Source of the DNA: Amoebophrya sp. A120
Lineage: Eukaryota; Protista; Dinoflagellata
Assembly (NCBI GenBank): GCA_905178155.1
Contig: CAJINV010000052.1
Span: 1 to 25,327 of the forward strand
Reading direction: 5' to 3'
Length of the DNA: 25,327 bases
Of the stretch, positions 279-24,991 are shown piece by piece; position 1 is the first letter of the stretch, and each line of letters opens with the position of its first letter. The translations under genes were made by a program, and so were the position numbers. The notes under the pieces are model-generated. The model was not told the origin of the DNA. It ran no database searches and was given only the letters and a program-made list of their open reading frames with translations.

Positions 279-3200
279 CTAAACATGGAGGTGTTCACAT
301 TGTCGTCCCACGAAATGGATCCTGTGCAAAAGTATCGCACTCGTAGTAGTAATCGCAGTAATGCATTACAAATTTCTTTCTTAAGTTAAATCCGCATTAC
401 AAATTTTATTTCTCAAACTGAGGAAATTTGTCATGCGATTTATACTAGTAAGTACGATGCTTTGCATTTGATAAAATGGAGCGGTTGTTGAGGAAGGCAT
501 TGTTCGTCCCATTCATCGGACTGTCGTCGTCGAAATTTCGAGTGAAGCCGCCCTGGGAATTTGTGAAAGTGCTTATCCTCCTGGTCCTTGCCATCCTCGC
601 CCGGCGAGGGGGGAAGGCGAAACCTCGCAACGTCGGGTTGCATCACCCCTTTCTCGTACCACTCGTTGCAGGTATTCAAAAGTGGCTGAAGTACGTTAGC
701 CGAAGCATCTCTTCTTCCCGTCTGGTCGTGGAGGAAGCCCACACGAGAGACCAACGCCGGCAGATACACGTATTTGATCAGCAGGTACTGCTCCGAGAAT
801 TTGAATACGTTTAACGCATCCGGCGGCAGGCCTGGGAGACCGGACTTTACGCGCTCATCTTCCTGCCTGGCTGCCATGTCCGCATCTCGGATGGCGATTT
901 GAAAAAGGGACTCGTACTTCTGCGCTGTTTTGGAAGATGCGGAGGAACTTCTCTGTGAGGCCGACGGCCCCTTGTGATCTCCGTTGAAATTGAAGCCTAT
1001 GCATTGCAAAAATGTCTGGGGCTGGAACGAAGCAACTTGTCATGCTAAATCTGAATCATGTGAAAATCTGTGTTGCATGATTCCCAAAAGCCATCCACTT
1101 TTGACCTAATCGAGAGACAATTTCTTATGCAGGATAGACATGATAGAACTTCCACAGAATCTGTCATGCTATGTCCTACCTACCTGACCGCACGGGCCAT
1201 GGAAAACCTGCATGACAAGTCTGGCATTCTTCCAGACCCAGACATTTTTGCATTTGATAAAACCGATTCCCGCACGATTTGGGTTCTCCGTTTCCTGCTC
1301 GAAGGCCGATTTGTACCGGTTCACGAGCATATGGATTGTAAAAGTGTCTGGGTCTGGAAGGTTGCAACTTGTCATGCTAATTCTGGATCATGCAAAAATC
1401 TGTGTTGCATGAGTGCCAACAGCTGTCCACTTTCGACCAAGTTGGCAGGGAGTTTCTCATGCAGGATAGGCATGGTAGGGATCTCACAGAATCTGTCATG
1501 CTGGGTCTCGCATTCCAGACCTCATGGCTCATGGAAAATATGCATGACAATGCTAGAAATCTTCCAGACCCAGACATTTTTGCATTCGATAGAGCACGAT
1601 TAGCTGCGAAGCCCAGTTGTGAAAATCCTGGGCCAGGAGGTGGTGGACCTCGCGCCAGTCTTGTTGGCCCCAAAAATTGACGATTGTAGATTCGCGAGTT
1701 CTACAACTACTTCCGTGGTTGGCGTGGGCGGCGAGAGCAGCAAACACTTTTTGTGCAACGGGAAGTGCGCAGATGGTTCCCGACCAGTCGTGCAAAAGCA
1801 TTGCTAGCACGTCGACCAGCGATTGCTGGGCCAGCCTGCCGACCGTCTCGTACATAACGCGCGTGATGGTGTCTATCTTCGCGCAGCTCTCCTCGGTGCC
1901 GGAATCATCGCGCCTGAAGAGGAGAGTTGCAAGCTCGTCCATTTTCGCTAGGTAAATATCCAGAATTTCTCGAAGCTCGTCGTCATGCGCAACGACCGGC
2001 TGTCGCTCAATCTCGGTCTCGGCAACACCACGATACGAGCGGGAGAGTATCTTCGCGGAGGCGCGATCAGGACTGCGGCCTTGCAATTTTTGAATGCAGC
2101 CTCCAACCATGAGAGGGGAGCCAGACCGCTCCACGCACGCCAGATTCGTAAGCATTGCAATGCTAGATCGCCGAACCAAGTGCAAGCACGCGGGCTTCAG
2201 CTTGAGCTGAGCGCTTTCTTTCTTCTCGCCGTAGTAAGGCAACAAATTTACCACGTAGCGCTTGCAGGCTTCCCGCTCCCCCGCTGACAGAGTTGTGTCC
2301 GATACTTCTCCAACAACCTCTGCATACCGGCCATTCAACTCTGGACGCGACTGTAGATCCTGTACCAAAATTAGGTCACCTTTGAAAAAAAGCGACGACG
2401 CTAACATTTTTGCGTGGTCTTGTTCAGCGGTCTTCTTTTTGATTCGCAGAAAACGGTGCGAGCCACGTTCACTTATCGGACACTGCTCGCACTTCGTTAG
2501 CATGTACTGGTAGACCGGGGTGATCGAGACCAGAAACCAGGCACTCACCGTGAACAGTTCTATTTGTTGAAGCAGCGCGACGCCGGTTTCCTTGTCGAGC
2601 GCACGCAGGTCCAAGACCTTTGTGTCGGTGTCGTCCGGAACATCAGCCGTGCTCCGGTTTCGCTGAATTTCTGCCAGGAGTTTGTACGGGTCGTCTTTCT
2701 GCTCAGCCGCAAATTTCTTCACGACTCGATCCACTTTATCATAGAGTTTGTCCAAGCGCTCCTCGTCCTTAATGTCATCGAAGTCATCGGGGTCATCACC
2801 CCATTCTTGTTTCATCTGCCTGCGCACCATCTTTTCTGTGAGAATTTCTCCGTACTGCAATTCCTGTTGGCGTTCTGGGACCCCCCTCGCGAACTCGACC
2901 AACAAACGGCGGACTGCTCCATACAGGTTCCGTAACGCAAAGCCCCGAAGTTGCCGCGGATCGTCCTCTTCCTCCAGCGGATCCTGAAGAACGGTAATGC
3001 AGGACATCATCATGTTGTCAACATGCACGCTCATCTCCCCAACTGCGTTCAGTGGAATCACGCCAGACATTGTTCCGCGAAGTATGTAATCGGAAATACT
3101 CCTGTTGGCCGGGTCTGCTGTCCCTGTAAAAAGTACGTAAGAGGCGCCGAAAGCCCCTTGCGCTGCAACCTGTCGGTCCTGCAACTCCCTTTGCAATCTG

Positions 3201-4436
3201 AGTTTCGCGTCCTCGGATGCGTTCGCGGCCTGCTGTCGTAAAAAGAAGCTCGCCACGCCATCCCTACTTGCGATTTTTGCTTTGGCCGAAACAATCTTCT
3301 CGTTACACCGCACTGTCCGTCCGTCTGCTGTTGACGTGCCAAGAACCTTCCACGAGTCGGGTGAGATTTCTCTCAGTGGTACTCCGAAAGCCGCTACGAG
3401 AACTTCCAGTGTCTTCTTCGTTTCCTCAAATTTGCAGTAGGTAAAAAACTCCTCTCGGAGCCGAGAGATGATCAAAACCGCACACAGCGCGAATCCGGCG
3501 GCGAAATTCTTCACGACATAATCGCGCGGCAAAAACTTCTTTTCCGTCGCTTCCGCGATGAACTTGTAGGCATCTATGATTGAATCCAGGTACACGTTGG
3601 CTGCGTGCAGCTTTTGCGTGAGGTCCCGGTTCTCCTCAATTGAAGCAGGCACGGTGTTTGCCTCGCCATAGCGATCCACCGCGACGACTCTTTCTACTTC
3701 TGCAGTTGAATCGCCCGCGCTGCAATCTTGATCCACATGTCCTCCTGTCGCTCCCGCACTTGCCCGGTCTTTGTCCAGTACCTGCTGTGCATTTCCCCTA
3801 GCAGGTACAAGATCTGCCACAGGCCGTTCGTTTCGTTCTGCGACACGTAGTATGGATTGCAAAAGTGTCTGCGTCTGGAACAATGCAGGAATTTGTCATG
3901 CAGATTTTGCATGACCGATGAGGTCTGTGATGCATGCCCTAGCATCAGAGATTTTGCGAGGGCTTTCATCACATGCTCATACCGCATGAGAAATGCCCTC
4001 TCCACGTAGCACAAATTACACCTCTTTTGCTGTTCATGCAATACAGATTTTATGTAGATTCCAAAAGTAGCATCACAAGTTGCATTCTTCCAGACCCAGA
4101 CACTTTTGCATTTGATGCGTAGCCGCTGTCAACGACACGAAAAACCCGCGCGTCAATTACCGCTACCAGCAAGAAGTCCAGCGTTTCCTTGGTTTCTTCC
4201 GAAAGCAGGTCGAAAGAAAAGGCAGTACGCGGCTCACCTCGCGAAGAACCAGACTGGCTGCCAGACGAGGTGGACTGCTTGGCCGATGGAAGTGGAGGAT
4301 TTTTCGCGTCTGAAGATTCAATATTCGACAAAAAAGCCTGGTTGCCGTTCGTTTCTTGCGTCGTCGTCGTCGTCGTCGCGCCAGGTGTTGTTCCTGACGC
4401 AGAAGGAGGTCGAGGTTGTGCAGTTCTAGCGCACAT
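279..4436 (-). CDS. Large hypothetical protein with 4 introner introns and one apparent frameshift near 3696; contains an SH3/KOW-like 'SRPELNG...RYVV...LKP' motif
   Basis: Exons are about 4436-4118, 3845-1592, 1324-1260, 992-474 and 312-279. The joins read SQLIVL|VNRYKSAF and AGIGF|NFNGDHKG in frame. The 5' join gives DSGY|VSQNETNGLW...QLQK*, one base out of frame with the 776-aa ORF. The frame at the 3' end is ambiguous. Confidence 0.7.
318..473. mobile_element. Family-B introner, 156 bp, DR AAATG/AAATG
   Basis: Ends are GATCCTGTGCAAAAGTATCG and CGATGCTTTGCATTTGATA. Internal GCATTACAA motifs are present. Homologous to 21869-22028 and 23495-23644. Confidence 0.85.
998..1259. mobile_element. 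Family-A introner, 262 bp, DR AAGCC/AAACC
   Basis: TIRs are TATGCATTGCAAAAATGTCTGGG and CCCAGACATTTTTGCATTTGATA. Removal restores the frame. Confidence 0.92.
1330..1591. mobile_element. Family-A introner, 262 bp, DR GAGCA/GAGCA
   Basis: TIRs plus a perfect 5-bp DR. Removal restores the frame. Highly similar to 22166-22432. Confidence 0.95.
3851..4117. mobile_element. Family-A introner, 267 bp, DR CGTAG/CGTAG, inverted relative to 22485-22747 and 23711-23975
   Basis: TIRs plus a perfect DR. The AAAATCTGTATTGCATGA motif is on the opposite strand, near the right end. Confidence 0.92.
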
Positions 4437-5017
4437 GGTTTTTTACACTGTATTCTTCCCTAGTCCGTAAGTCCGAATCTTTCAAAATCCGAACTCTCCT
4501 GGGTTTTGCCCTTCGCTTCCCTCGAGCTCTCGGTGCAAAAATTTGACCTTGGCCTACCTACAATACGAGGAGATTTCTTTCGTCGAGGAACAGAAAGCGG
4601 TACCGAATCGAAACAACGAACACAAAGCATCAAAAGGAAAAATCCACCATCCCCATATCGAAAAGGAAATTTCTGATGCGAGATTTGCGTTACGCAGCGT
4701 ACACAAATTCAGGGGCCCAAACATTAACCGGACTAAGTTGCAGTTCTTCCTGCGCTTTGGAACTTTCTTGTAAGTCGTGCTCCTGCTCTGCGACTCGTCC
4801 GCGGATGCAGACGCAGGAGGCAGCATGAATTTACATTGCAGCTGGTGCGAGAGGTTGAAGTACTTCTTTCCGCCTTCTCAAATTTTTTGATGGCTGACAG
4901 CCAACAGTGCTTTGAGCGTCAGCAGATTCACCTTTTGCCGGAAATCCCCACCGAAAGCTTCATCAAGAATCGCGCGTAGCTGCCTACAACAGCTTTCCAC
5001 CATTCCCATGCTGTGCA

Positions 5018-6053
5018 TCAGGTCGTAGATGACCTCCGTGTGAAACTCGTCAGCAACCTGGTTCCATTTGGGCAGGTCGTCGTCGTCGCGCCAGGTGTTG
5101 TTCCTGACGCAGAAGGAGGTTGTGCAACAAGCACCAAATGATAATTACCGGGTAAATCTCTTGACTTCATGTCCTTCAGCAGGCGACCGCTGAAGCGCTT
5201 GTGTTCGTACAGGAACTGCTTCAGGACGCGCTCTGCCAGCTCATGCTGCGCATCCCCGAGCAGGTCGTACACATGGGAAATGATTCCTCCAGCGATTTGC
5301 TCCGCTACCTCAGACTGGCTTTTGCAGCTGGCCTTCCCTCCATCCGACGGAGCTGCTTCTGCGTCCTCGCCCAGTCGCGTCTCAGTGACCAAGATCGGGT
5401 GCTCTTGCCAGGCCAGCTTTCTGTTCGCACGCAGGTCTGCTGGTGCTTGTTCGTCAGTATTCGTTGTAACACTCTTCCTCGTGGTCCGGGGGGCGGGCCC
5501 AGCTTCCGCCTGTCTGGCGGCTGCGGCGTCGTTTGCGTTCTGCAGTTCCGCCTCGCGACGAGTTTTTTTCAGGTCGAGCTCTTCCCGTTCCAGCTCGCGT
5601 TTCCGGACTTGCAACATGGTGAGACGCCACGTCTCCTGACTTACCAAATTTTTGGAGTGCACCGAAACCGGAATGACCTTGTATCCTTCCCGCTTGAAAA
5701 TGCGGCCTATGACAGTGCACAACTTGTTCCCCTCCCTCTCATCTGAAAGGCGTGACCAGCAAAAGAAACGCAACCGAATATATAAGCCTGCGCATGTGCA
5801 TGACAAGTTGCTGCCTGCTACATAAACTGCATCAGCATAATGTGTTTCCGCTGCTGGGATTTGTCATGCAGACAGGGCAAAACAGAAACGGCATTTGCAT
5901 GGCAATTGAGGGAAAAGCGGAGTTGTGCATTCTCATACGGTGGCTGCCGCATGTGTGATCCTTCACCCAGCCCTTCTCTTGCAAAATTTTCTCCAGGTCG
6001 ACCAGCCTGTACGTAGGGGGAGTGTCGGACTCCTCCTGGTGCGCAACAGCCAT
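5018..6053 (-). CDS. Hypothetical protein with a coiled-coil stretch; two exons joined across a degenerate element; 3' end uncertain
   Basis: ORF 5832..6053 (MAVAHQEES...CGSHR) can join ORF 5018..5806 (LRFFCWSRL...RKRELEREELDLKK) in frame if about 5775-5937 is removed. Protein-like sequence continues in another frame below 5075. Confidence 0.5.
5780..5937. mobile_element. Degenerate introner-like element, about 158 bp
   Basis: Contains GCATGACAA and TTGTCATGC motifs and a TGCATTCTCATA right end. Its size matches family B and removal joins two ORFs in frame, but the DR is poorly conserved (2/5). Confidence 0.4.
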
Positions 6054-6829: not shown

Positions 6830-6842
6830 TTTACGATTTAGG

Positions 6843-8225
6843 CTTTTTCGTGCCAGCTGTCCACAAGATGTCACTTTTGCCAGGAGCGATATACGCAAAA
6901 ATCTTGTTTTTGAATATTCTGGTGCAATCCTGGTTTTTTCGTGCCATCTGTCCACAAGATGTCACTTTTAGCAGAAGCGAGATACGCAAAAAACTTGTTT
7001 TTGAATATTCTGCAATCCTGGTTTTTTCGTGCCATCTGTCCACAAGATGTCACTTTTACCAGGAGCGAAGTACGCAAAAATCTTGTTTTTGAATATTCTG
7101 CAATCCTGGTTTTTTCGTGCCATCTGTCCACAAGATGTCACTTTTACCAGGAGCGAAATACGCAAAATTCTTGTTTTTGAATATTCTGCAATCCTGGTTT
7201 TTTCGTGCCATCTGTCCACAACATGTCACTTTTACCAGGAGCGAAATACGCAAAAATCTTGTTTTTGAATATTCTGCAATCCTGGTTTTTTCGTGCCATC
7301 TGTCCACAAGATGTCACTTTTACCAGGAGCGAAATACGCAAAAATCTTGTTTTTGAATATTCTGCAATCCTGGTTTTTTCGTGCCATCTGTCCACAAGAT
7401 GTCACTTTTACCAGGAGCGAGATACGCAAAAAACTTGTTTTTGAATATTCTGCAATCCTGGTTTTTTCGTGCCATCTGTCCACAAGATGTCACTTTTACC
7501 AGGAGCGAAATACGCAAAAAACTTGTTTTTGAATATTCTGCAATCCTGGTTTTTTCGTGCCATCTGTCCACAAGATGTCACTTTTACCAGGAGCGAAATA
7601 CGCAAAAAACTTGTTTTTGAATATTCTGCAATCCTGGTTTTTTCGTGCCATCTGTCCACAAGATGTCACTTTTACCAGGAGCGAAATACGCAAAAAACTT
7701 GTTTTTGAATATTCTGCAATCCTGGTTTTTTCGTGCCATCTGTCCACAAGATGTCACTTTTACCAGGAGCGAAATACGCAAAAAACTTGTTTTTGAATAT
7801 TCTGCAATCCTGGTTTTTTCGTGCCATCTGTCCACAAGATGTCACTTTTACCAGGAGCGAAATACGCAAAAAACTTGTTTTTGAATATTCTGCAATCCTG
7901 GTTTTTTCGTGCCATCTGTCCACAAGATGTCACTTTTACCAGGAGCGAAATACGCAAAAAACTTGTTTTTGAATATTCTGCAATCCTGGTTTTTTCGTGC
8001 CATCTGTCCACAAGATGTCACTTTTACCAGGAGCGAGATACGCAAAAAAGTTGTTTTTGAATATTCTGCAATCCTGGTCTTTTCGTGCCATCTGTCCACA
8101 AGATGTCACTTTTGCCAGGAGCGAGATACGCAAAAAACTTGTTTTTGAATATTCTGCAATCCTGGTTTTTTCGTGCCATCTGTCCACAAGATGTAACTTT
8201 TACCAGGGCCAGAGTACGCAAAAAA
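6843..8225. repeat. Tandem array of an 88-bp unit, about 15.6 copies, near-identical in the centre
   Basis: The unit GTGCCATCTGTCCACAAGATGTCACTTTTACCAGGAGCGAAATACGCAAAAAACTTGTTTTTGAATATTCTGCAATCCTGGTTTTTTC starts at 6850, 6941, 7029, 7117 ... 8173. Confidence 0.98.
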
Positions 8226-9001
8226 GTTCACTTTCAACATTCCGCATGAAGGATCAGCTTGGGCGACCGGGGGTTTCTTGCGAAACATGTCGACAGCGAA
8301 CACAATTGTAAAGCGGTGTTTCGCTATTGCTTTATATCTATGACAAGATAGCCGTAGCTTCTGCTGTCGTCCCAGTTTGTTCACGCAACTAGTTCAGGAT
8401 ATCTATGGTAAACTATGTGGAAACTCTATTTGGCTCCTTCTTTGTCACCATCATGTAAGTACTCTAGCGTTACCTACGAGGGTCGTTCCGGCTTTTAGTC
8501 ATCAATTTTTGTGCAAACCTTTAACATGAGCTGCGGTTCGTGAATCTACCATATCTTTCGGCTCGTTGTGCGAAAAGGAAACAAATATGGAGACAGTAGC
8601 ACGACGTTTTTCATATAAAGTCTATATCTAGCAGTATCAATGATCTAGCACAACATGACACGACTGGCAAATTAATTGTACATCAAGAATCGCCATTTTC
8701 GTTTGAATTCTAGCTTCAGCAGCCCATTTCATTTTGCAAAGCTAGCGGAAATCGTTTTTAGCGGTCTTGGTATTCTTCTTCATTATATGCGTATCATTGA
8801 ATCTAAAATTACTGGGATGAAAACGCGGTGGTGGTCCTAGTCGTTGAAATTCCCGAGAAAGCGGCTCATCACGTTCACGACTCGGCTTCTTCGCCGTATG
8901 CAACCACGCCAGAGAAAAGCCCATCATCCACAGCTTGCTCAACTTCGTTTGCAGAAAATTTGGAATTTTCATCAAGCGATAAATGCATAGATGCATGATC
9001 C

Positions 9002-10100
9002 TTATCTGTCATGTGCTCGTCGGTCGTCCGCAGGACGGATCCGGTAATACCATGATTTCAAATCAATCTCAAGTAAATAGGTCTTGACCACCACACGTAG
9101 AACCCACGAGAGGTGGTTTTTCTCAGTACATAACGGTGGCGAAAAATTTGATTCCTCTTCCTCAGCGGCCTCCGAGCCCGGGGAGTCCGCTTCCTCGTTA
9201 GCGCCATTCGATGCGATTTTCATTTTGACCAGTGGTTTGATGACGTTGTGGTCTATACCGCAGTGCAAAAGCGTCGCAAGAAGTGTACATTTTGCACATC
9301 CACCAAAATGATATATTGCGAGTAAGTGAATTCTTTCATCTACGAGCACAGCAAGTGGCTTGCCTTCACTACAAAAACGCGCTCTGTACAAAAAAAAACG
9401 GGGATTTTGCAACACGGGATAGAGTCGGGCTTGAACAGCGAGTATCCGATGCAAGCAAGTCTGGGTCTGGAAACTTGTGATGCGGGTTGGACATTCATGA
9501 GAACACTATGCCTCAACTGACGGCGAAGCATGACCACAAGTTTTTGCGCTGGTAGATATTGCCTACTCTACATGGCTAATCGCATTTATTTAGCATGACA
9601 GGCAATTGGGGTCGTGTTTGGGCAATTTACACGACAGGGTTAAGAGTTCGCGTCGCTATTCGAGCATGACAAACAATTCATTCTTCCAGACCCAGACCTA
9701 TTTGCAATGTATAGCGAGACGGAAAAGGTCGTGGTGGTGCTGGACGAGGAGGTCGTCCCAGTGCCCGAATCGGTATCAAGTGCAACTATGTCTGGGCCCG
9801 GACGGATCGATGCAACGTTAGCCATGCTTGTCTGGCATGAGTGAAGAGTTCGCGATGCGTTTTGAAGAAGAAACCCTTTCTCTTGTCATGCAAAGTCGCC
9901 TTCTGTGATGCAAAAAGGTCAATACTAACCCGCGCAAATATTTCCCATGCTTGGCTGTGCATTGCAGAGCATCGGCATTCACTATTCACGCCTATGCATA
10001 ATTACAAGTTTCCAGACCCAGACGTATTTGCAATCCATAGTCGGCACCAGAGGCGGCAGGCGAACCCCTCGAGTTCTCCGTCTCCGTATCAAGGCAAATA
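9002..10100 (-). CDS. Probable coding region interrupted by two introners; frame and strand not resolved
   Basis: Removing 9443-9713 and 9774-10039 leaves open frames on both strands. It may be the 3' part of the gene starting at 11644. Confidence 0.3.
9443..9713. mobile_element. Family-A introner, 271 bp, DR GCGAG/GCGAG
   Basis: Ends are TATCCGATGCAAGCAAGTCTGGGTCTGGAA and TTCCAGACCCAGACCTATTTGCAATGTATA. Confidence 0.92.
9774..10039. mobile_element. Family-A introner, 266 bp, DR ATCGG/GTCGG
   Basis: Ends are TATCAAGTGCAACTATGTCTGGG and CCAGACCCAGACGTATTTGCAATCCATA. Confidence 0.88.
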
Positions 10101-10670
10101 AAACGCTTTCTCGTCTGCCTTGCGCATTCGGTCGTATGATTTCAGGTTGCACGTACAAAAATTTACATTGACTTTATCGAAAATACGTACCATGACAGAA
10201 AGCTTTCATCCGTTAAAACAGCCACCATGACTTTATCTTTATTCGTGCCCTTGCTTCGAGTTTCGGAAAAATGGCACATCAGCAGGCATTTTCTCTTTTG
10301 TGTGTGAAAAGCGAGAGTAGGGAAACGTTTTCGGCGCAGCATACGGAGGGGCATCTCCAGAGTTGGCGTTCTTCCCTCCCCCCAGAGTTGGCGCTTCCGG
10401 ATGCAGACTACACATTACCACCATGGTTCCGATCACAGTGATATCAAGATCAAAACTTTCGCAGAGGGATTCATTCGTCACAAACAGCAATGCACAAAAG
10501 GTGGGCCCCTGAGAAAGTCCAGTCGTCTGCAATAACAAAGTCTTGCGAAGAGAACATAGAAAAGGATGCTAGAATAGCAGCTTAGCTATGCGACTAGAAG
10601 AAAGCCTGGCGAAGCAGCAGGCTCTCTCCATCTCCACGGAATAAAATTTTTTGCACATAGGGTTGCAACT

Positions 10671-11644
10671 TCATTTCCTTGGAAAGGTAGTAGTTATCCC
10701 TTGGTGCTGAAAAATATTCATCTTGATATCCTGTGACGAGCATGCACACGGCCAGGATGATGAGCTTCCACCACACGCACTGCATCCCTGTTGTCGATTT
10801 GCATTCCGTTGGAAATAAAAAGTGTGAATCTTTATCTGCAAGTCTAAAAAGTGGTAGGTGATGCACACTTCAACTTCATGCAGACACAGTTGAACAAGAA
10901 CACGGAGTGAATCTGAAAGAACTAGTAAAATCGAAGTACCCTCGTCCTGGTCTTGTGCCCCCGGCTCGTCCTTTTCCTGCAGCAGTTCCTGCTCCTCCAC
11001 CGGCGAAGCGGTGTCATCCTCAGTGGCAGTGGCGGAGGTACTCATCTTTTTCATCACCTGCGCTCCTTTCCCAGGGGTCTTCATGGCAGTACTGGCCGCT
11101 GCGGCGAGAGATTTACCCGCAGCTTTCATCGCTGTGGTAATCTGCGGTGCAGTATCAAGCGCAAACATGTCTTGGTCTGGAAAGTTGTGATGCATGTCGG
11201 CGAATAGTAAACACACTGCAACGCAGCGCCAAAGAACATGACAGATTACTTTTTTTGTGCTTTTCTCTCGCGTCATGTTGTCATCAATTGCGCATGAGAA
11301 TGAGATACAGTGTTTTAGGTTTTGCATGACCAACAAGTACAAGAGGAGGCGTTCGTGGTCGCGCAATACAAAGCTCAGTCTAATGCCAGACTAGCATGAC
11401 AAACCTCGCGTTCTTCCAGACCCCGGCATATTTGCAATGCATATGCAGACGAGCAGGTCGCGGAGATCATCATCTTCATGGGCGGTTTCTGGGTTGGCTT
11501 TGCACTTCCTGACCGCGTGGTGCCTTTGCCTTTCATACTCTTATTGTTTTTCCCTTTTTTATTCGATGCATTGCTCGCACTGCGCTGATTGCGCTTGTAC
11601 AGCGCTGCCTTGCTGACTCCTCCCACCATTTTCTTCCCCACCAT
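10671..11644 (-). CDS. Hypothetical protein with a Lys-rich basic N-terminus followed by an acidic stretch; 3' structure uncertain
   Basis: MVGKKMVGG...ATCSSA|PQITTAMKAAGK joins in frame after removal of 11153-11443 plus one DR. Confidence 0.6.
11153..11443. mobile_element. Family-A introner, 291 bp, DR TGCAG/TGCAG
   Basis: TIRs plus a perfect DR. Removal restores the frame. Confidence 0.92.
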
Positions 11645-12549
11645 GATGCTCAATGGACGAATTTTCCAAACTCCTAGGACTTTTGTCGGTGGCGCTCTTT
11701 TCGTGATTTTACAGACGCAAGCGCCGCTATTGTCGTAAAGATAGAGAGAAGCTGTCACTTCAAATTTCAAAAGGCAAACAAGGAAACTGAAATCGCAGTG
11801 TTCGTCGTGAGCAGAGACCTCAACCTCTCCTCGCTCGTCATTGCGCTCCAGGGATAGCAACCACCTTTCCGTGCTAGTACTTCTCCTGGTAACCGCTACA
11901 GGAGCTGTAAGCAGACAAAATAAGACACCAAGCTCACTGCTTACTCTCATCTACCTCGTTGCACTTGCAACTCAAGTAAAGAATTTTTTTCGTCATCGCT
12001 CGGCAAGAAAAAATTAGATAAACTTTTGCCGCCACTTAAAAGCAACAAATCTTGAAGTCGCACGAATCGTTGTATATCGTACGCTGTGGCTAAGTAGGAA
12101 CACACACACCCCTGTAAGTACCCCGCCGGAACTCCAGCGCCTCCCTTGTTTCTGCTTTCATCGCGCCGCCATTCCTAACATCAGTACATCTTCTAGAACG
12201 TCACTTTATTTAATTTGCGAGTGGGCTTTATTTCACATCTTTTCAGTTCGAAAAAGGTGAGCAGCAGTCGTGGGGACACATTTACTTTTTCCGTACGATG
12301 TAAAGTGAATATTTTTTACTGCTGGTTCAATGCACGCACGCACGGCTTCGTTTGATTATCGGATCCAAAATGGATAATATCCATTTTGCCAGCTCGACAA
12401 AGGTTTCACGTTCATCTCGTATTTTCAAATTACATCGCGTAAATCGAGTCCAAATCCTTGCGACACAGTATTCATTCGAATTTGCTTGGGCTTCTTTATT
12501 CCAATAGGACTAGGAAGTCAGTACATCTACTTTGTCGTCGACCGCTGGT

Positions 12550-13615
12550 TCACAAGTCCTCCTGCTGGGATTCTTGCTCGTCGTTCGATCTGCCCCGCAG
12601 ATCACCGTGGCCCTCCTCATCATGAGTGCCGTCGAAAGCCGATTTTTTAGGTCGTGCCTTCTTTGCATGGGTGTGGTTCGTCGCAGGCTGTGCTTCCGGC
12701 CACGACTGTTTGTCTGCGGCTGCGTCGTTGTCCGCATCCGCCTCATCGGAAAATTGCTTTTGGATGGCGAGGATTTCATATGGAAGGAAAAACATTGCAA
12801 TCCCCCTCCGCTACGTACTGTGCTTGTTCCGCGTGGAAATACAGACGTCAGCCTGGCAAGGAAATGTCTAAGTTTCTATCGACTCGTGTGACTGCTGGTC
12901 TGAAGACATGAGTACCAAGAGCACAACGGTTAGCCCAGTCCGGTGGACAAGAGTTCGCATAAAATACTCGACTGTGAGTGTAGTAAGACTTTATCTTTCT
13001 ACTATGCGAGAGCGAGGTGCGATAATCGGGAGGCCTTTGGATTCCAACACAATTTGATATCTTTTTTTGCAGCTCGATATCATCCCCTGCTATCGTGAAG
13101 CCAACGTTATAGACTTGCTTCGTAACCTCCGCGAGGCCCATGATCATCAGCCGCTCGAAATCCGACCCCTTCGTCGCCTTGTCCGGGACTGTCTTGCCAG
13201 ATCGCCTATACATTGCAAAAATATCTGGATCTTGAAGGATGCAAGGTTTGTCATGCCTGTCTGTAGCATGACTGCAGAGCTTGTGACGCGTGTTCAAGAT
13301 GAGATCCTTTTGCTTGTCATGCAAAAAGCGAAACGCAGACTGTCATGCGGGAAACGCAACACTTGGCCGCGCAAATATTTCTATCGCTACGCCACCCGCT
13401 GCAGTGCATTTCCAATTCACGGCCCAACATTACAAGTTTCCAGACCCAGACATAGATATTTGCAATGCATATCGCTTTTGGGATTTTTTCTTCTTACCCC
13501 TGGCTCTTTCCTTGGTTCGATTTTTCATTTTCCCTTCGGCAGTCGCGTTCGTGGGTACGGCCACCTCTTGTCCCGCGGTCGCTGGGTCCGTCGCGTATGA
13601 CGGCAAAACGAGCAA
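12550..13615 (-). CDS. Hypothetical protein (partial model; start and last exon uncertain)
   Basis: GKKKKSQKR|SGKTVPDKATK joins in frame across 13207-13471. The acidic ORF 12550..12795 is a plausible last exon. Confidence 0.5.
13207..13471. mobile_element. Family-A introner, 265 bp, DR TCGCC/TCGCT
   Basis: Ends are TATACATTGCAAAAATATCTGG and CCAGACCCAGACATAGATATTTGCAATGCATA. Removal restores the frame. Confidence 0.9.
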
Positions 13616-14183
13616 AAGTCAAGCCCGGGTTCAGTTGCACTTTTCAAAATTTCAATTTTGGCACCATGAGCAGAATCCACCAGGAATCGATTTGTCATCG
13701 GTATCTTTCTAATCAATCTGCACGACTGCTGTAGATTGACTACAGTTGTTGTTCTTGTTGAGTATGCGTAAACTTTTGAGTGAAGAAGTGCCTGTATGCA
13801 AGAAACTTCGCTTGACGCACAATTTTTGTAGGATAGGGTGGCCGTCAGATGGTCCGAAGGAGAGTTGGCTCGTGCCTTGTCCACGCCAGGAAGGGTGGTT
13901 GCAATACCTTGGTCATTGTTTGGAAAACTCCGAGACTTTGGAGGCGGCAGAAGTTTTTTTTCATTTCTACTTCCTCACACAGACTTTACCGACCACCGCA
14001 GAGTTTGAATCTTTTTGCGGTCGTGCCCAAAAATCATGACACTGTCAAAAAACAGTTTGCGTCGAAATGTCAAAACACGAGAGTGATGAAATCCTGAGCA
14101 GTACGTCGTATATACATACTGTCGGTTTTTTCGGACGCGTGGATCTATTTTTCGAATGGACAGAAGTACTGTGCTCTCGTTTG

Positions 14184-16120: not shown

Positions 16121-18756
16121 TTACACAGAATTCGACTGGTTTTCGTCTCCGTCGTCCGAGGGTGTGATTGTAGTCTGCTTGCTCAGGTGTTCCCTCGCTT
16201 GCTTCTCTGCTTCCTCTTGTGCCGTCAGCAGAATTTGATATTCACCGCGGAGGGAGAGCAGGTCCGCCAAAATATCGACGACATTCTGATGAGTGTTTTT
16301 TTTGGCGATGAAGCTTCGCGCCCGCTCCAACACCAGGCGGACTTTCACGACGTCGTGATGTGAGTCCTGTTGTATGTTTTTTATTTCGGTTTTTTCTTTT
16401 CGGAATCTGTATCTGACTTCTATACATAGAACCGAGTTTTTGTCAAATTTAGGGCTGAAGACACGATAAGGGCTTTCCTCAATCATTCCACCCCACAGGC
16501 AAAAGCTTTCGAAAATGTACGCTGTTCTCCTCGAGAAAATTGAAAATCTGGGTCGGCGTCGGCAGGTGTTCTGAAGAAAACCAGCTACACAGAAGTCTTC
16601 GCGACTCGCCAGCCCGCCTCATAATCTCGGACCGCTTACCTTGCCGCAATGCCTCTCGAAAATCGTTGTTGAGCTGGTTGCGCTGCTGGATAGTGTCCTG
16701 TCATGAGATTTGGAAGTTTCGTATTGTGTATGCAGATTGTAGAGCAACCAGTCATCTACTTGTGGAGATCGTCTTTACATTTCATTTGCATAAAAACATA
16801 TCCTTACCTGTGTAATTTTCTGCGCCTCTGCCTTTTGTCGTTCACCCATGTTGTCCAAATCCTCCCGCAATGCCGTCCCAATCTCGTCGACGTACAGGTA
16901 CAAGTGTTTGATTGCGTCGCTATTCTCCTGCGCGACTTGCTTACAACTGGTGTTTGTTTCCTGCAGGGCCCTCTGTAGCTGCTGGCAGGCCTGGGCGAAC
17001 TGCTGTTCCAGGGCACTGCGGTCCGCGATTTGCCTGTCTCCGACCTTCCCGACTTCACCCTTCAGCGCGGTGACGTTGTCGCGAAGCGACGACGTAGCGT
17101 TGAAGATTTTGTCCTCTATTTCTTCCCACACGCGTGCCGCCTCCCCGCGGAAACTCTGCTCGAGCTTGCGCATGTCGTTCCCGCACCGGGTGTATCGAAC
17201 GGTGCAAATCTGGTGTCTGGGTCTGGAAAGAAAAACTTGTCATGCTGGGTGGAGCATCACAATTGACGGACAAGCATGACAAGTTTTCGAGTTTCTGCAG
17301 CGTCACTGCCCATTCTGCGTGAAAGTGCAGTAAATTTAAATTATTCCTTTTGGTAAAACGCGCATGACAAACTTGTGAGGACTGACATTCTTTGCCGACG
17401 ACGAGGGTGGCAAACCTTGCATTTGTCTTCCAGAGAGCCCAGACACATCTACGATGTTGCATAGGGTCAAGCAATCCAAAAAATCATCCGTTTTTACTTT
17501 CAGTTGCTGCTTCAGTGCCGATTGCTCTTTCTCCACTGCGTCAGTGCGCTCGTTCACGGTTTTCAACTCCTTCATCGTCTTCTGCTCGAAGGCCTGGTGG
17601 CGCGCGTTTACACCGCTGAAACCGTCCCTGGTCTCCTGCTCGAAGCCGTCCTGGCGGGAGGCCACACTGCTGAAACCATCCCTGGTCTCCTGCTCGAACC
17701 CGTCCTGGCGGGCGTTCACGTCCGCGACGGCGGCTGTGGTTTTCTCCTGAAGCCCAAGCAGGTCCGCTTCGATCCGCAGAGCCCGTTCATTCGCAGCCCC
17801 GCTGTGCAGTTCCGCTGTCCCCACACGCCCCACCAACTTCACGTGCTCACCTTCGAGATCTGACTGCTTCTCGAGCATGTTGCGCCGAGCACGTCTCTCT
17901 TCCTGTCGGATCAGCGCATCCACCTTGTGCAGCTCATCTTCTTCCCTTTGTTGCAGTTGTTGGCGCTGCTCCTTGAAGTGCTGAGTGATTGCGTCCCTGC
18001 GCTTGTAAAGCTCCGTCAGTGGCGACGCCTGTGCGACTGGTGGTCTGGGCGCTTTTCCCGCGGGTCCGGTCGTGAGCAAAGACGCAGCATATGCGCCGCA
18101 AATATGTCTGGATCTTCATCTGGAAGGGTGTATAGTAACTTGTCATGCGAAGTCTCGACCACACAAAGTTCATCCAGGTTCGTTGTCTATACCCCATCAA
18201 CAGCTGCCCCCTTCTTCCTAAGAAAAAGGCGCATTGCTTATGCGGAATTGACATCGCAAAATCTGTAATGCTTCTGCATGCACTCCAGTGGTCCGCGAGA
18301 TGCATGACACATCTTGCACACTTCTTCTAGACCCAGACATGTTATTGCAGTGGATACTGCCAGGAAAGAACGTTTTACCGACTCTGGGGTAGGCACCGCA
18401 GAGGACTTATTATCTTCTTCACCCCCGGCCCCGCCAGGGGAGGGCCACACGACGGCTCCGACGGCTCCATCTTCGGCTGTACCGGGGATCACGTCTGTGG
18501 AGAGGAGTGGCAGCACACGGGAGCTTCGGTACTGCTGTGGCTGCCCAGGTGAAGGCGTGAATGTGAGGGAGGCAACCTCATCTGATGTTGACAACACGCC
18601 GTCTTCTTCCTGTTGACTCGGGCCCTCTTCACCTGGACCGCTTTGTGAGGGAGAGCTTTGGATGGCCGCCGACGCGAAAGGCTGCGTGATATTACCGTCG
18701 TCGTCTTCGGGCGAACTGAGGATAACTTCGTTTGCTTTATTCCCTGCTGACTTCAT
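16121..18756 (-). CDS. Coiled-coil hypothetical protein (about 592 aa) with 2 introner introns and 3 canonical GT-AG introns
   Basis: Exons 18756-18357, 18084-17464, 17187-16808, 16697-16640, 16570-16497 and 16366-16121 sum to 1779 nt in one frame. Donors are CAG|GTAAGG and AAG|GTAAGC; the last donor is uncertain. It contains an internal 18-aa repeat (RQDGFEQETRDGFS). Confidence 0.75.
17193..17463. mobile_element. Diverged family-A introner, 271 bp, DR GGGTG/GGGTC
   Basis: TAT...ATA ends with GTCTGGGTCTGGAA and TTCCAGAGAGCCCAGAC. The join DCLT|RCGNDMRK is in frame. Confidence 0.88.
18090..18356. mobile_element. Diverged family-A introner, 267 bp, DR CAGCA/CTGCC
   Basis: Degenerate TIRs. The join RSFLA|ASLLTTG is in frame. 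Confidence 0.85.
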
Positions 18757-19214: not shown

Positions 19215-19857
19215 AAGACAACCACGCCGGCACGATGGATTTTCCCTTCCATCCCCCTTCCAACTCCCTTCCATGGATCTTTTGCTTGGTCAGCAAAAAT
19301 GTCTGCATTTGGAAGCCCTAAGCGGGACCTAAGCGGGAGCTACACTAAGACAACCACGCCGGCACGATGGATTTTCCCTTCCGTCCCCCTTCCAACTCCC
19401 TTCCATGGATCTTTTGCTTGGTCAGCAAAAATGTCTGCATTTGGAAGACCTAAGCGGGACCTAAGCGGGAGCTACACTAAGACAACCACGGCGGCACGAT
19501 GGATTTTCCCTTCCATCCCCCTTCCAACTCCCTTCCATGGATCTTTTGCTTGGTCAGCAAAAATGTCTGCATTTGGAAGACCTGAGCGGGACCTAAGCGG
19601 GAGCTACACTAAGACAACCACGACGGCATGATGGATTTTCCCTTCCATCCCCCTTCCAACTCCCTTCCATGGATCTTGTGCTTGGTCATCAAAAATGTCT
19701 GCATTTGGAAGACCTGAGCGGGACCTAGGCGGGAGCTACACTAAGACAACCACGACGGCACGATGGATTTTCCCTTCCATCCCCCTTCCAACTCCCTTCC
19801 ATGGATCTTGTGCTTGGTCAGCAAAAATGTCTGCATTTGGAAGACCTAAGCGGGACC
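19215..19857. repeat. Tandem array of a 132-bp unit, about 4.9 copies
   Basis: AAGACAACCACG...GAGCTACACT recurs at 19215, 19347, 19479, 19611 and 19743. A diverged partial copy lies at about 20925-20995. Confidence 0.97.
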
Positions 19858-20920
19858 GTCACTACGACAAGCGATAGAATTATTCTGAAATTGAAAATGA
19901 CCATTTTTCGCGAAAGCGAAAAGCGGCAGTGGTCTTTCTCTTTTCAGTTTGTGCAAGGCAAGGGCAAAAAATAGGGAAGCAAAAGCACGCGCGGCCTTTC
20001 TCCCGGAGCGGTTTCTAATCAGTGCAGGCACTACCCCTAGATCAAAAAGTCTGCGCATGTGGGTTCCCTAGATTGCCTAGATTTCCAAAATGCCCTCCCT
20101 AGATTTTCCCTAGACTTTCCCTAGATCATCACGAAGCCGTCGTGATAGAATTATTCTGAAATTGAAAATGACCATCTTTCGCGAAAGCGAAAAGAGGCAG
20201 TGGGCTTTTCAATTTGTGCAAGACAAAAGCAAAAAATACGGAAGCAAAAGCACGCGCGGCCTTTTCCCAGGGGCGGTTTCTATTGAGTGCAGGCACTACT
20301 CCTAGATCAAAAAGTCTGCGCATGTGGGTTCCCTAGATTCCCTAGATTTCCAAAATGCCCTCCCTAGATTTTCCCTAGATTTTCCCTAGATCATCACGAA
20401 CCCGTCGTGATAGAATTATTCTGAAATTGAAAATGACCATTTTTCGCGAAAGCGAAAAGAGGCACTGGGCTTTTCAATTTGTGCAAGACAAGAGCAAAAA
20501 ATAGGGAAGCAAAAGCACGCGCGGTCTTTTCCCAGGGGCGGTTTCTATTGAGTGCAGGCACTACCCCTAGACGAAAAAGTCTTCGCATGTGGGTTCCCTA
20601 GATTCCCTAGATTTCCAAAATGCCCTCCCTAGATTTTCCCTAGATTTTCCCTAGATCATCACGAACCCGTCGTGATAAAATTATTCTGAAATTGAAAATG
20701 ACCACTTTTCGCGAAAGCGAAAAGAGGCAGTGGTCTTTTCAATGTGTGCAAGACAAGAGCAAAAAATAGGGAGGCAAAAGCACGCGCGGGCTTTCTCCAG
20801 GAGCGGTTTCTATTGAGTGAAGGCACTACCCCTAGATCAAAAAGCCTGCGCATGTGGGTTCCGTAGATTTCCAAAATGCCGTCCCTAGATTTTCCCTAGA
20901 TCATTTCCAAAATGCCCTCT
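19858..20920. repeat. Tandem array of a 265-bp unit, about 4 copies, with internal CCCTAGAT subrepeats
   Basis: Repeated ORFs at 20129, 20394 and 20659 give the period. Each unit has clustered CCCTAGAT motifs and an ATCACGA-N5-TCGTGAT hairpin. Confidence 0.97.
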
Positions 20921-21099
20921 CATCTCCCTTCCATGGATCTCTTGCCTGGCCAGCCAAAATGTTTGCGCTTGGGAGACCCAAACGGGACCGTCATTGAGCC
21001 AAACACGGCCGTTTTGATGGATTTTCCGTGGCCCCCCACAGCTGACAAAATTTTTGCAATACCCTTCGCGCATAGTATCTGTCTCTCGCGGTAAACAAT

Positions 21100-21168
21100 C
21101 ACAACCCATTCGTGTAGCATTACAAACTCAAACTTTTCCAGACCCACCAGGGATCTTTGCAATACGCA
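21100..21168. mobile_element. Orphan, degenerate family-A right end
   Basis: GCATTACAA...TTCCAGACCCACCAGGGATCTTTGCAATACGCA. No clear left TIR was found. Confidence 0.55.
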
Positions 21169-21794
21169 GTGGCTTGATTTGGTCACTCAGCCTGCCTCAG
21201 ATCTAAGCATCTATAAATGCATGAACAGCTTCGCTCGACAGAGCCATGAGAGCGCTACTGCCGAAAAGCTCCTGAGAATGAAGAACAGAGACGCTCGCGG
21301 CTCTTTTGATACTTGTTCCAGGACGTCGAGCACGTCAGTGCCAATACGTCCTGCTTCCAGGCGTCGGCAGAGTTTTTTTTTTCGTTTTTCTTTTTTCTTT
21401 TTGTGTGAGAAAAAAAATTCCAGTCGTGTCTCAAGGAACTACTTGATATATAATCCGGAGGTGTCGCATGCTTCAGTCGTCTGTGCAACGTATTTACAGC
21501 ACCAAGAAGCAAAAGCACGAACAAGTAGCAGCGGTATACTTATATCATTTTCCTCGTACAACGGGAGAGGCAAAGTGAAAATAAAGGCACATGGCATCAA
21601 ACGTCGTAAGGGTCGTGAGGAAGCTAAAAATGCGATTATAAGAACCGTTCCACTATCGGTTTCGCTACGGTTTGTTTGTGTCGCTTTGTGTCGCCGCGGC
21701 TATCCAAGTTTAGGATTAGGTCTACTAGTGTACCACGAGAAATAAAGCTTGAATACCCGCATGGTTCGTACTTTCACCCCGCGAACTATTTTTC

Positions 21795-24700
21795 TCACCT
21801 CTTCCGCCCACTCGCGGCGCTCCTTCCCCCGCCGCCACCTTTCCGGACCGTTGCCTTTGCGTTCCTGCTATCCCGTGCAAAAGTATCGTACTCGTAGTAA
21901 TTATCGCATTTATGCATCACAACTCTACTTGCTATTGCAAATCCGCATTACAAATGAAATTTGTAATGCTGAGTCAATTTGTATTGCATGCGATTTATAC
22001 AACTAGCACGATGCTTTTGCAGTTCATACCTGGCCGCCTGTGCCTTCGCTTTCGCTTTGGCCGCGGCCGCCGCGGCTTTCGCCCGGGCTTTCTGCTGCTG
22101 TGCCAGTAACTTTGCCTGCTTCTCTCGGGCCTCCCTTTCCAAGCGAATCGCCCGGGCCTTGTTCTTATGGATTGCAAAAATGTCTGGGTCTGGAAGGTTG
22201 CAACATGTCATGCTAAATCCGAAGCATGCAAAAATCTGTATTGCATGAGTGCCAAAAGCTGTCCACTTTCGACCAAGTTGGGAGGGAGTTTCTCATGCAG
22301 GATAGGCACGAAAGTGAAAGAGACCTCACAGACTCTGTTATACTAGGTCCCGCATTCCAAACCTTAGGGGTCATGGAAAACCTGCATGACAAGTTCACAC
22401 TCTTTCAGACCCAGACACTTTTGTTTTTCATAGTTCTTTTCCCTCTTCCTCCGCTGGAGTTCCTTCTGGTACGGCCTCTTCAAGTATCAAATGTAAAAAT
22501 GTCTGGGTCTGGAAAGTTGGGACTTGTGATGCTAACTTTGGATTCTAAAAAAAATCTGTATTGCATGACCAGCAAGAGGAGCCACATTGGTGCCGCGCGA
22601 GGAGGGCATTTGTCATGCGGAAATGGCATCAGGAAGCGTTCCAAAAATCTGTGATGCTGGGTCATGCATTACAAGCATCATGGGTCATGCCAGACAAGCA
22701 TGACAAGCCTTCCAATCTTCCAGACCCAGACATTTTTACATTTGATATCAAGCGGACGTAATCGGCCGTGCCGCGCTTAGACAGCGTCGTTGGGAGGAGG
22801 AGCATGTTTTCGAGATGTAGATCGAACTCGGGATCTTCCGGCTCCTCTTCCACTAGCAATTGATGTCGCTGGGCTGCCTGCCGCTGTCTCATCACCTCCT
22901 GGGAAACTACATCTTGCGCTCCTGCTTTTCCAGTAGTTCCCAGCCCGAGAAGACCTCGCGACGTGCTGCTCTGCTGGTTCAGAATTCCAGGTTTGATATT
23001 CTGTCGTTGCAGATTGATTTTATGAACTGCCGAAGATGAGGATGAGGATGAAGAAGACTGGTTGATCGTAGGTCTTTGAACACCGCTACTACTTGGTGGA
23101 AGTTTATAATTCACATTAGAACTCGGCAAGGAACTACTTGCACTGGAGTCGTAGTTCTGCAACCCCATAGTAGCGCTCTTTCCGCTTTTCCCGTGTTCCA
23201 CCCTCTTCGCAACTGTGTTATGCGCTGCCCTCTTCGTGATCCCAGTGCCGTGTACTTGAAGTTGTTTTCCTGCCGCGCCGGTTCTGGCGACTTTCCCTTG
23301 TCGCGCGGGCCCACTTCCAGGCGGCAGCATCGTCTTTTTCAGGTGTTTCTTCTGCTGCTCCACAAGTCGAGCTTGCTGTTCTCGAAGTTGTGCTGCCTGC
23401 TCCTCCTGTTCCTTGTCCGCCGCCTCTTTCGCTTCCTTTTCAGCCTTCTCCCGATAAAACTTGTTTCGGTTGAAAATTTCGTGTAATAACTGGTTATCCA
23501 ATGCAAAAGTATCGCACTCGTAGTGATTGCAGTTGTGCATTACAAACGCAGGCATTAATGTCCATCCGCATTACAGATTTAATTTGTAATGCTGAGCAAA
23601 TTTGTAATGCAATTTGTACTAGTACGATACTTTTGCAGTTCATACTGGTTCTTCTTGGGCAATAGGTTCCCCTGCCGGTCCTTGGCTTCCTTTTCCAAAA
23701 GGGGCTGCGCTATCAAATGCAAAAGTGTCTGGGTCTGGACGAATGCAACCTGTGATGCTGCATTTGGATTCCAAAAGAATCTGTATTGCATGAGTAGCAA
23801 GGGGAATGCAATTTTTGCTACTCTGAGAAGGCATTTGTCATGCGAAATATTAGGCATCAAGAAGCCCTCAAAAAATCTGTATTGCTAGGGTAGGCATCAC
23901 GGACATCATGGCTCATGCAAAACGTGCCTGACAAGTGTCAGAATCTTCCAGACCCAGACATTTTTCCAGTTGATATGCACTGTGAACATCGTCATCAGCT
24001 CCTGCTTCATGTGCACTCGCACGAGTGCTTGATTCAGTGACTCTTGCTGCGGCTCGCCCAGTATGGATTGTAAAAATGTCTGGGTCTGGAAGGTTGGGAC
24101 TTGTAAAGCTAGCTTTCCATAGCTAGAAAATCTGTATTGCATAACCAACAAAAGTCGCAGTCTCTTTTGTCATGCAAGAACGCAGGTTCTCATGCGGATT
24201 GCCTACGAGAAAGCGTTTTGGGAAGTTGTCATGCCGGACTGCATTCGGAAGCGTTTTCATCATGCACATTTTGGCATCACAAGTTTCCAGACCCAGACAT
24301 TTTTGCATTTCGTATCCAGCGCCGGCAGTGGGCCCGGAAGCTGGTGGGCCGGCATGCTCAAAGCTTCATCCAGTGTCGCGGTTCTTTTACCCCCCAGAGG
24401 GAATTTCTTGCCCGGTGGGTCCTCCGTTGCCACCGACTTCAGCCGGTTGTTTTCGATCTTCAGCTGGGTCACCGCGTCTTTCGGCTTGGACACAATTTTC
24501 ACGTTCGGGGGCAACGACCGCGGGTTCACGCTCGTCACCGGGAAATTTTCTTCGACCCACTGCGTTTGTCGCGTCACCGCTTCGCGGATGTCGCGCTCAT
24601 TTGTCTCTGCTTCACCGTTATGCATTGCAAATAAGTCTGGGTCCTCTGGAAGGTTGTAGTGCGTATCTTGCATTCCTGGAAAATCTGTGTGGCATGAGCA

Positions 24701-24991
24701 GCAAATAAGCAGCGTTCCTTATTATGCAATAAGGCAATTTGCGTTGCGTGTCACGCAGAGGGAAACGCTCCGAAAGGTTGTCATGCTTGGCTGCCGTTGC
24801 AAGCGTTGCAGCCATGCGCAATTCAGCATCACAGGTTTCCAGACATCCAGGGATATTTGCAATGCATAACCGTGCTGCTTTTCGAGATAGTCGTGCAGTG
24901 TCTTCTCATAGACGAACTGCAGTTCGCCACTGAACCCGGACGCCAGGACATCCTGTGTAAAAATGTACCCACCCAATAGTTGAGTTGGGAT
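21795..24991 (-). CDS. Hypothetical protein, 5'-incomplete (at least 517 aa), with coiled coils, a Ser-rich middle and a very basic K/A/R C-terminus; 7 introner introns
   Basis: Exons 24991-24869, 24613-24315, 24056-23976, 23705-23645, 23489-22748, 22479-22433, 22160-22029 and 21863-21795 sum to 1554 nt and read as one open frame ending SGRKR*. Confidence 0.85.
21869..22028. mobile_element. Family-B introner, 160 bp, DR CCTGC/CCTGG
   Basis: Ends are TATCCCGTGCAAAAGTATCGTAC and GCACGATGCTTTTGCAGTTCATA. The join QAAR|NAKAT is in frame. Confidence 0.92.
22166..22432. mobile_element. Family-A introner, 267 bp, DR GTTCT/GTTCT
   Basis: TIRs plus a perfect DR. The join REKN|KARA is in frame. Confidence 0.95.
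22485..22747. mobile_element. Family-A introner, 263 bp, DR TCAAG/TCAAG
   Basis: A perfect long TIR (TATCAAATGTAAAAATGTCTGGGTCTGGAA). The join YVRL|KRPY is in frame. Confidence 0.95.
23495..23644. mobile_element. Family-B introner, 150 bp, DR CTGGT/CTGGT
   Basis: Ends are TATCCAATGCAAAAGTATCG and CGATACTTTTGCAGTTCATA. The join KKNQ|LLHE is in frame. Confidence 0.95.
23711..23975. mobile_element. Family-A introner, 265 bp, DR TGCGC/TGCAC
   Basis: TIRs present. The join MFTV|QPLL is in frame. Confidence 0.93.
24062..24314. mobile_element. Family-A introner, 253 bp, DR CCCAG/TCCAG
   Basis: TIRs present; the right end is GTA. The join PALD|EPQQ is in frame. Confidence 0.92.
24619..24868. mobile_element. 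Family-A introner, 250 bp, DR ACCGT/ACCGT
   Basis: Ends are TATGCATTGCAAATA and TATTTGCAATGCATA. The join KQHG|EAET is in frame. Confidence 0.92.

Follow-up and report, generated by a model that had tools for sequence, protein, structure and literature searches.

How can genes remain readable when they are interrupted, again and again, by transposon-like elements most of which offer no GT-AG splice sites? The question is raised by a stretch of 25,327 nucleotides (nt) from the dinoflagellate Amoebophrya sp. A120 (assembly GCA_905178155.1, contig CAJINV010000052.1, positions 1 to 25,327 of the forward strand; hereafter the window), in which a preliminary description made from the letters alone had listed 17 elements with inverted TAT...ATA ends and 5-nt direct repeats. 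Using a scan for inverted ends and shared core motifs, we recovered all 17 where they had been placed and named them E1 to E17. They are 150–291 nt long, run from TAT to ATA (three ends deviate by one base), and are flanked by direct repeats that are perfect in nine cases and carry one mismatch in seven and two mismatches in one, as had been tallied. At least four matching repeat bases out of five are found for 1.9% of random position pairs and for 16 of the 17 elements (p ~5e-27), with no signal among E1 to E17 for repeat lengths other than 5 nt. A register giving GT/GC-AG on the gene strand exists only at E2, E8 and E11, so that the earlier count of 14 of 17 elements lacking one is reproduced. 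Here we present evidence that these introners of the A120 type are, with good probability, removed from the pre-mRNA by cuts that keep a fixed distance from the ends of the element, 1 nt on one side and 4 nt on the other.

The RNA evidence consists of Logan contigs of runs X4, X5 and X7, which represent one sample and are RNA by guess; they behave as spliced RNA. Fourteen joint rows were obtained. One of these (9483/17271, with 36 foreign letters and side 21) was a repeat artifact and was dropped, three correspond to GT-AG introns, and the other ten, one of which contains a micro-exon, represent 11 further junctions; a twelfth, that of N6, was pieced together from two loose contig ends. At all 12 junctions the RNA contigs lack the element plus 5 nt. 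The removal is of the non-GT-AG kind at 12/12 joints, with a GC-AG alternative only at E8, consistent with the precise removal that had been proposed. Six of the junctions belong to the six testable elements of the original list (E5 to E10), and six belong to further TAT...ATA elements with decayed repeats, N1 to N6, which the RNA joints revealed; the original list, although real in every entry, was thus incomplete. The tested elements and the micro-exon are as follows.

8897..9132, minus strand: N1, old element, repeat 0/5; RNA joint 8892/9134, 1+4 register (see below) unique
9254..9421, minus strand: N2, old element, repeat 3/5, skip of 173 nt; the lone mismatch of the RNA piece is predicted by 1+4 only
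9423..9438, minus strand: micro-exon of 16 nt between N2 and E5, limits by rule; letters found at 9427–9436 and kept in the RNA contigs
9443..9713, minus strand: E5, repeat 5/5; RNA skip equals element + 5
9774..10039, minus strand: E6, repeat 4/5; RNA joint 9769/10041, element + 5
10087..10343, minus strand: N3, old element, repeat 2/5; RNA joint 10081/10344, two registers including the rule
10442..10728, minus strand: N4, repeat 0/5; RNA joint 10437/10730, 1+4 register unique
11153..11443, minus strand: E7, repeat 5/5; RNA joint 11147/11444
12779..13059, minus strand: N6, old element, repeat 2/5; junction from the two loose contig ends, element + 5
13207..13471, minus strand: E8, repeat 4/5; RNA joint 13200/13471, which a GC-AG register fits too
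13596..13835, minus strand: N5, old element, repeat 2/5; RNA joint 13591/13837 (one contig, run X7), 1+4 register unique
17193..17463, minus strand: E9, repeat 4/5; RNA joint 17187/17464
18090..18356, minus strand: E10, repeat 3/5; RNA joint 18084/18357, two registers including the rule

The gene at 8369–11709 illustrates the result as a whole: when its six elements and one GT-AG intron are removed, the spliced model measures 1378 nt, exactly as much as the X4 contig, and contains a frame of 289 codons.

In transcript sense, all 12 introns likely have the form N-TAT...ATA-NNNN, cut 1 base before TAT and 4 bases after ATA (the 1+4 register, or the rule). This register fits 11 of the 12 junctions directly and fits N2 once its single mismatch is counted; it is the sole fitting register at N1, N4, N5 and, by inference from the mismatch, N2. 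The joints of N3, N6 and E10 leave room for no more than one base before TAT, and that of E6 requires at least one. Seven junctions exclude the mirror-image 4+1 register despite the symmetry of the ends, which gives the cut a polarity. Note that N1 to N6 were found from RNA alone, and that TAT and ATA lie at the exact offsets of the rule in six out of six, each triplet occurring at ~0.9% of positions.

The oldest elements indicate what guides the cut. N1 and N4 are spliced with a repeat match of 0/5, and N3, N5 and N6 with a match of 2/5, with TAT and ATA at unchanged distances from the cuts. Direct-repeat identity is dispensable for removal, and the splicing of N1 and N4 indicates that the cut is set by the ends of the element and not by its direct repeats. 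Over the 46 ends of the 23 elements, the three terminal bases are T in 44, A in 46 and T in 45, and A occupies end positions 11–12 in ~39. In N1, N3, N5 and N6 the terminal bases match 3/3 and the inner inverted repeats only 3–5/17. Whereas young elements have a predicted end-to-end duplex (z −3.5 to −15.7), four of the six older ones lack a stable one (z −0.2 to −1.6). Because TAT and ATA are intact in N1, N3, N5 and N6 while their inner inverted repeats and pairing have decayed, we infer that the two triplets are splice signals under selection. (Considered over all elements, the two ends agree at positions 1–3 and mostly from position 8 on, and at positions 4, 5 and 7 in only 8–9 of 23; this reads as a short terminal stem that an internal loop separates from a long one.)

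We then asked whether the joined forms could have arisen in other ways. The preliminary description had suggested that the paired inverted repeats bring the direct repeats into line and thereby set the cut, so that cutting or exchange could fall anywhere within the repeat homology. The 16 young elements with four or five matching repeat bases, and joints that lie inside the repeats, are what this model expects, but elements with repeats of 0/5 (N1 and N4) and 2/5 (N3, N5 and N6) are removed at element + 5 in a single register and pairing is weak in four old elements, which contradicts the model and leaves it very improbable. Precise excision from the DNA in a transcribing stage, in the manner of internal eliminated sequences, had also been entertained, and the transposon-like ends would suit it. 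Run X1 bears on this point, since it behaves as DNA, with flat depth of ~26–33 across genes and spacers, long contigs and no differences. X1 contigs keep nine of the 12 RNA-tested elements whole, and at the other three both ends are joined to element sequence (joints in X1 were swamped by repeat artifacts). Because rare forms are lost from contigs and the life stage of X1 is unspecified, excision limited to a particular stage would be compatible with these data. However, excision must also account for a cut that is asymmetric on symmetric ends at seven junctions and that needs no repeat. Amoebophrya is not known to have a separate germline nucleus, and without one excision from the DNA would be inherited and the elements would be lost. 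Taken together, these points make excision very improbable, and removal of the elements likely occurs at the RNA level.

The same repeat-less junctions argue against a third possibility, namely that the joined forms are artifacts of template switching by reverse transcriptase ("falsitrons") across a hairpin with short direct repeats. All the RNA data used here derive from complementary DNA, and falsitrons do arise at a hairpin with repeats of 4–5 nt and are abolished when the repeats are removed (PMC8240250); yet elements without repeats and with weak pairing are skipped too, and the joined forms dominate the contigs, side by side with spliced GT-AG introns. Moreover, in a gene for the largest subunit of RNA polymerase II (RPB1) from a metagenome locus, L049, four elements, one of them 972 nt long, interrupt conserved motifs, which are restored when each element plus 5 nt is taken out. 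The product has 1341 stop-free codons and matches distant homologs at each junction, whereas taking out 4 or 6 extra nt gives 26 and 28 stops, respectively. Judged from its sequence, this gene points to removal in a conserved housekeeping gene on grounds that are independent of reverse transcription, and we regard an artifact as very improbable. (The 972-nt element, at 6024–6995 of L049, contains a nested insertion of ~700 nt that ends in an A-rich tail and is flanked by a duplication of ~19 nt, which by eye is retroposon-like; the ends and the 5-bp repeat of the host element are intact.)

The L049 gene came from a metagenome scan in which 137 stretches share these ends; the 135 loci analyzed are a part of ~410 stretches. 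Copies in these loci number 7–139 matches for 14 of the 23 window elements and none for the other nine, and the best are 68–94% identical to window elements. A perfect 5-bp duplication flanks 134 of the 152 paired copies shorter than 450 nt, and other lengths give no signal. Of the long-family copies, 54 are clear, and these are split 27:27 in their orientation relative to the transcript. E1 to E17 have no coding capacity, with stops in most frames, and their interiors are shared within the window and thus represent repeated families. The elements are likely non-autonomous DNA transposons, similar to miniature inverted-repeat transposable elements (MITEs), with a 5-bp target duplication. As to long copies that might encode a transposase, for which a search had been proposed, the longest with a matching duplication in the 135 loci is the 972-nt element (the Pfam scan covered the open reading frames of the window).

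The remaining elements of the original list lie in two genes at either side of the window.

318..473, minus strand: E1, short family, left end GAT, repeat 5/5, rule intron 314–474; removal inferred from frame
998..1259, minus strand: E2, long family, repeat 4/5; GT-AG register also possible
1330..1591, minus strand: E3, long family, repeat 5/5
3851..4117, minus strand: E4, long family, orientation opposite to E2, E3, E12, E13 and E15, repeat 5/5
4127..4161, minus strand: predicted 35-nt GT-AG intron; the upstream exon is in frame with the E4 + 5 product (1053-codon frame)
21869..22028, minus strand: E11, short family; the rule makes it a GT-AG intron; +5 product out of frame with the C-terminus of the paralog (see below)
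22166..22432, minus strand: E12, repeat 5/5; paralog P0001 reads across as element + 5
22485..22747, minus strand: E13, repeat 5/5; terminal inverted repeat perfect, 30/30
23495..23644, minus strand: E14, short family, repeat 5/5
23711..23975, minus strand: E15, repeat 4/5; paralog residue corresponds to the upstream repeat copy, in line with the rule
24062..24314, minus strand: E16, repeat 4/5; paralog residue corresponds to the downstream repeat copy, in line with the rule
24619..24868, minus strand: E17, repeat 5/5

The preliminary description had leaned on restoration of the reading frame at seven consecutive junctions in the last gene. Removal of element + 5 does give a 517-codon frame across E11 to E17, but removal of element + 4 gives one of 532 codons, so that an open frame alone is weak evidence, and we rejected it as stand-alone proof. 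At the protein level, only one homolog of the last gene was found, an A120 paralog, 89% identical, whose annotated sequence crosses E12 to E17 exactly as element + 5 predicts and agrees with the 1+4 register at E15 and E16. The paralog carries the N-terminal domain PF05669, which we take to be Med31. Of the last gene itself, we observed that 21728–24946 duplicates the C-terminal two thirds of the A120 PF05669 protein at 89% identity; X1 depth is raised and variant letters occur over this interval, indicating that at least two copies exist.

Several observations weigh against the fixed register or narrow its basis. At the E11 junction the paralog continues in a frame other than that of the +5 product. 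An AG located 14 nt past ATA would restore the paralog frame (21869–22034), and the conflict points to a frameshift, a mis-assembly or a different way of splicing in the window copy. (In that copy the upstream repeat of E11 is apparently one base longer than the paralog protein implies, which under the rule shifts the C-terminal frame.) In the L049 RPB1 gene, taking out 2 or 8 extra nt also leaves a stop-free frame, with scores of 5894 and 5873 compared to 5938 for 5 nt. Only four junctions fix the register by themselves, and that of N2 depends on one mismatch of unlocated position. The RNA is a single sample of contigs, "RNA" by guess, and because contigs hide minor isoforms, precision is demonstrated for the dominant form only. 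All RNA-tested genes are on one strand, as are, more generally, the host genes of E1 to E17 and N1 to N6, all minus. Finally, E1 to E4 have no RNA cover and E11 to E17 rest on the paralog. The gene holding E1 to E4 has no exon cover in four runs, and no homolog of it was found among proteins of 414–1318 amino acids. Of the further runs, raw RNA runs X9 and X10 contributed 10 and 3 reads only, partial and all at repeats, and the cover of run X6 in the window was confined to repeats.

Which machinery removes the elements is the least certain step of the reading, and three canonical introns with RNA joints allow a comparison.

10788..10939, minus strand: canonical GT-AG intron, sharing a transcript contig with six elements
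16367..16520, minus strand: canonical GT-AG intron
16698..16807, minus strand: canonical GT-AG intron

The canonical donors seen begin with GTA in 10 of 10 cases (three RNA-confirmed, seven inferred), and under the rule 22 of the 23 elements begin N-TA, that is, with T and A at intron positions +2 and +3. U1 was not found in strains A25 and A120, where 83 of 89 spliceosomal proteins were (PMC7789003), and U1 is present in a strain with canonical introns (PMC12005148). Moreover, two tunicate studies indicate that a spliceosome can relax its intron ends (PMC11282704 and PMC13326754). The resemblance to GTA donors, the undetected U1 and the tunicate precedent lead us to favor a U1-less U2-type spliceosome as the catalyst, a proposal to which we would give even chances. 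What weighs against this step is that, under the rule, the elements lack the GT/GC...AG ends of U2-type introns. GT-AG results for one of 23 window elements (E11) and for two of 95 copies in the metagenome loci. The 95 are those copies out of 152 whose strand could be called (57 remained uncalled), by a caller that was correct at 17 of 18 window elements, on whose genes it had been trained. Within these copies there is no trace of a G at +1 (28/95, p 0.91) or of a terminal AG (6/95, p 0.71), both being at background. Likewise, G at +5 is about as frequent at the 5' end (11/23) as at the mirror end (10/23). G at the fourth repeat position, which is both the last exon base and the last intron base, occurs in 41/95 (p 0.007, or 0.03 over five positions), and is a hint only. 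No purine requirement at the exon start was seen among the window junctions. (A branch A at −7, suggested by the canonical introns, was dropped as inconsistent in a small sample.)

The same 1+4 code might instead be read by a non-spliceosomal endonuclease that acts on the paired ends, together with an RNA ligase of the RtcB type. The lack of any preference for G+1 or AG and of an orientation bias accords with such enzymes, as do the long terminal stems of young elements. There are precedents: Euglena introns with a paired triplet and fixed spacers of 3 nt and 5 nt (PMC12501133), and SOS splicing, which paired inverted repeats trigger (PMC12779559). However, SOS splicing is described as imprecise and as leaving indels, in contrast to the 12/12 exact junctions found here; little pairing is predicted for four of the old elements that are spliced; and the model does not predict T and A at +2 and +3. 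We consider this alternative less likely than the spliceosome, though not far behind it. On it, A120 would possess a second splicing system, independent of the spliceosome, precise to the base and measuring 1 and 4 nt from a paired UAU/AUA, an idea we hold only tentatively. Such a system would handle a large part of the introns of this genome. It would have arisen convergently with euglenid splicing, which it resembles, and would correspond to SOS splicing in a precise form.

To return to the spliceosomal reading, the ends of the element would be brought together by a terminal hairpin or by a protein that binds the two of them; the spliceosome would take N-UA-U as a relaxed GUA donor and would count four bases beyond AUA in place of recognizing AG. 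The offsets 1 and 4 sum to the length of the duplication, so any insertion, at any target and in either orientation, would be removed without a scar and hence be harmless, which would explain the spread of the elements through exons. After insertion the duplication would decay, and selection would hold TAT and ATA as splice signals.

The window holds further traces of such elements. An 18th element that had been overlooked is represented by its left part.

24949..25077, strand not assigned: left part of an 18th element, starting with CAT; complete copies of its family are 279–286 nt long (metagenome loci)

Its right end was not found in the window: in 24949–25327 the element is followed by a different multi-copy repeat, with an X1 depth of ~530 at 25137–25192. 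An orphan right end of a long-family element occupies 157–263, ending at 263, with no left end found in the window; a lone end of another TAT-type family, starting with CAT and lacking a clear partner, lies at 4628–4690 (the family also occurs in L049); and a degenerate remnant at 21046–21165, which resembles the elements and has a single terminal core, was left out of the count. Tandem arrays are located at 6844–8225 (88 nt × 15.7), 19215–19857 (132 nt × 4.9) and 19873–20901 (265 nt × 3.9), and the 132-nt unit includes a degenerate copy of the terminal core of the elements. A stretch of ~50 nt occurs twice, at 4365–4416 and 5078–5126, in an unexpressed region upstream of the first gene. Searches of 14 window open reading frames against Pfam gave no match at the curated cut-off, and searches of the window against Rfam (at gathering score) and against viral contigs gave none either.

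How do these elements relate to systems already described? Introners of A120 have been reported whose ends consist of TAT, about seven variable bases and an A run, with direct repeats of 3–5 nt and with RNA sequencing support for non-GT-AG removal, the mean length of non-canonical introns being ~240 nt (Farhat 2021, PMC7789003). The window elements share the TAT start, the A run, the direct repeats (5 bp in the example of Fig. S19) and the non-GT-AG ends. Because the end grammar is the same, the class is already known, as the preliminary description had held: the elements are the published introner class of Amoebophrya sp. A120. The difference lies in the splice sites, which that paper describes as variable relative to the hairpin, with an unknown border and inverted repeats 1–5 nt away; here one register serves 12/12 junctions, including those with vanished repeats. 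We found no paper that states a fixed register and none that links Amoebophrya to SOS splicing or RtcB, and the 1+4 rule is likely unpublished, although Roy et al. 2023 (Curr Biol) and Figs S19–S23 of Farhat may bear on its novelty. A fixed code would bring tens of thousands of apparently signal-free introns under one rule, would explain how a transposon family can fill exons at no cost, and would correct gene annotation in Amoebophrya parasites. It would also give the exact coordinates needed to tell whether a spliceosome with no regard for G+1 and AG is at work or a new splicing enzyme.

Other lineages provide partial likenesses. The nonconventional introns of Euglena (Nomura 2025, PMC12501133) share a paired terminal triplet, fixed unequal spacers, the absence of GT-AG and a likely MITE origin; the code differs, being N3-CDG...CH'G-N5-6/R there and N1-TAT...ATA-N4 here, and the lineage is unrelated. 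SOS splicing (Zhao 2025, PMC12779559) likewise removes DNA transposons with inverted repeats from mRNA without GU-AG, but does so imprecisely and requires AKAP17A, CAAP1 and RTCB, whereas the dominant product in our contigs is exact at 12/12. Fritillaria (PMC11282704 and PMC13326754) also combines transposon-derived non-GT-AG introns with a largely conserved U2-type spliceosome; it keeps U1, however, and prefers AG-AC and AG-AT ends, whereas the window elements appear to be free in their first base and in their last four. The introners of algae and other dinoflagellates (Gozashti 2022, PMC9860276, and 2025, PMC12130899) are similar in their MITE-like insertion, target duplication and unchanged mRNA length, but in the examples described they carry or co-opt GY-AG-type sites from the element, the duplication or the target, and the elements of the window need neither to carry nor to co-opt such sites.

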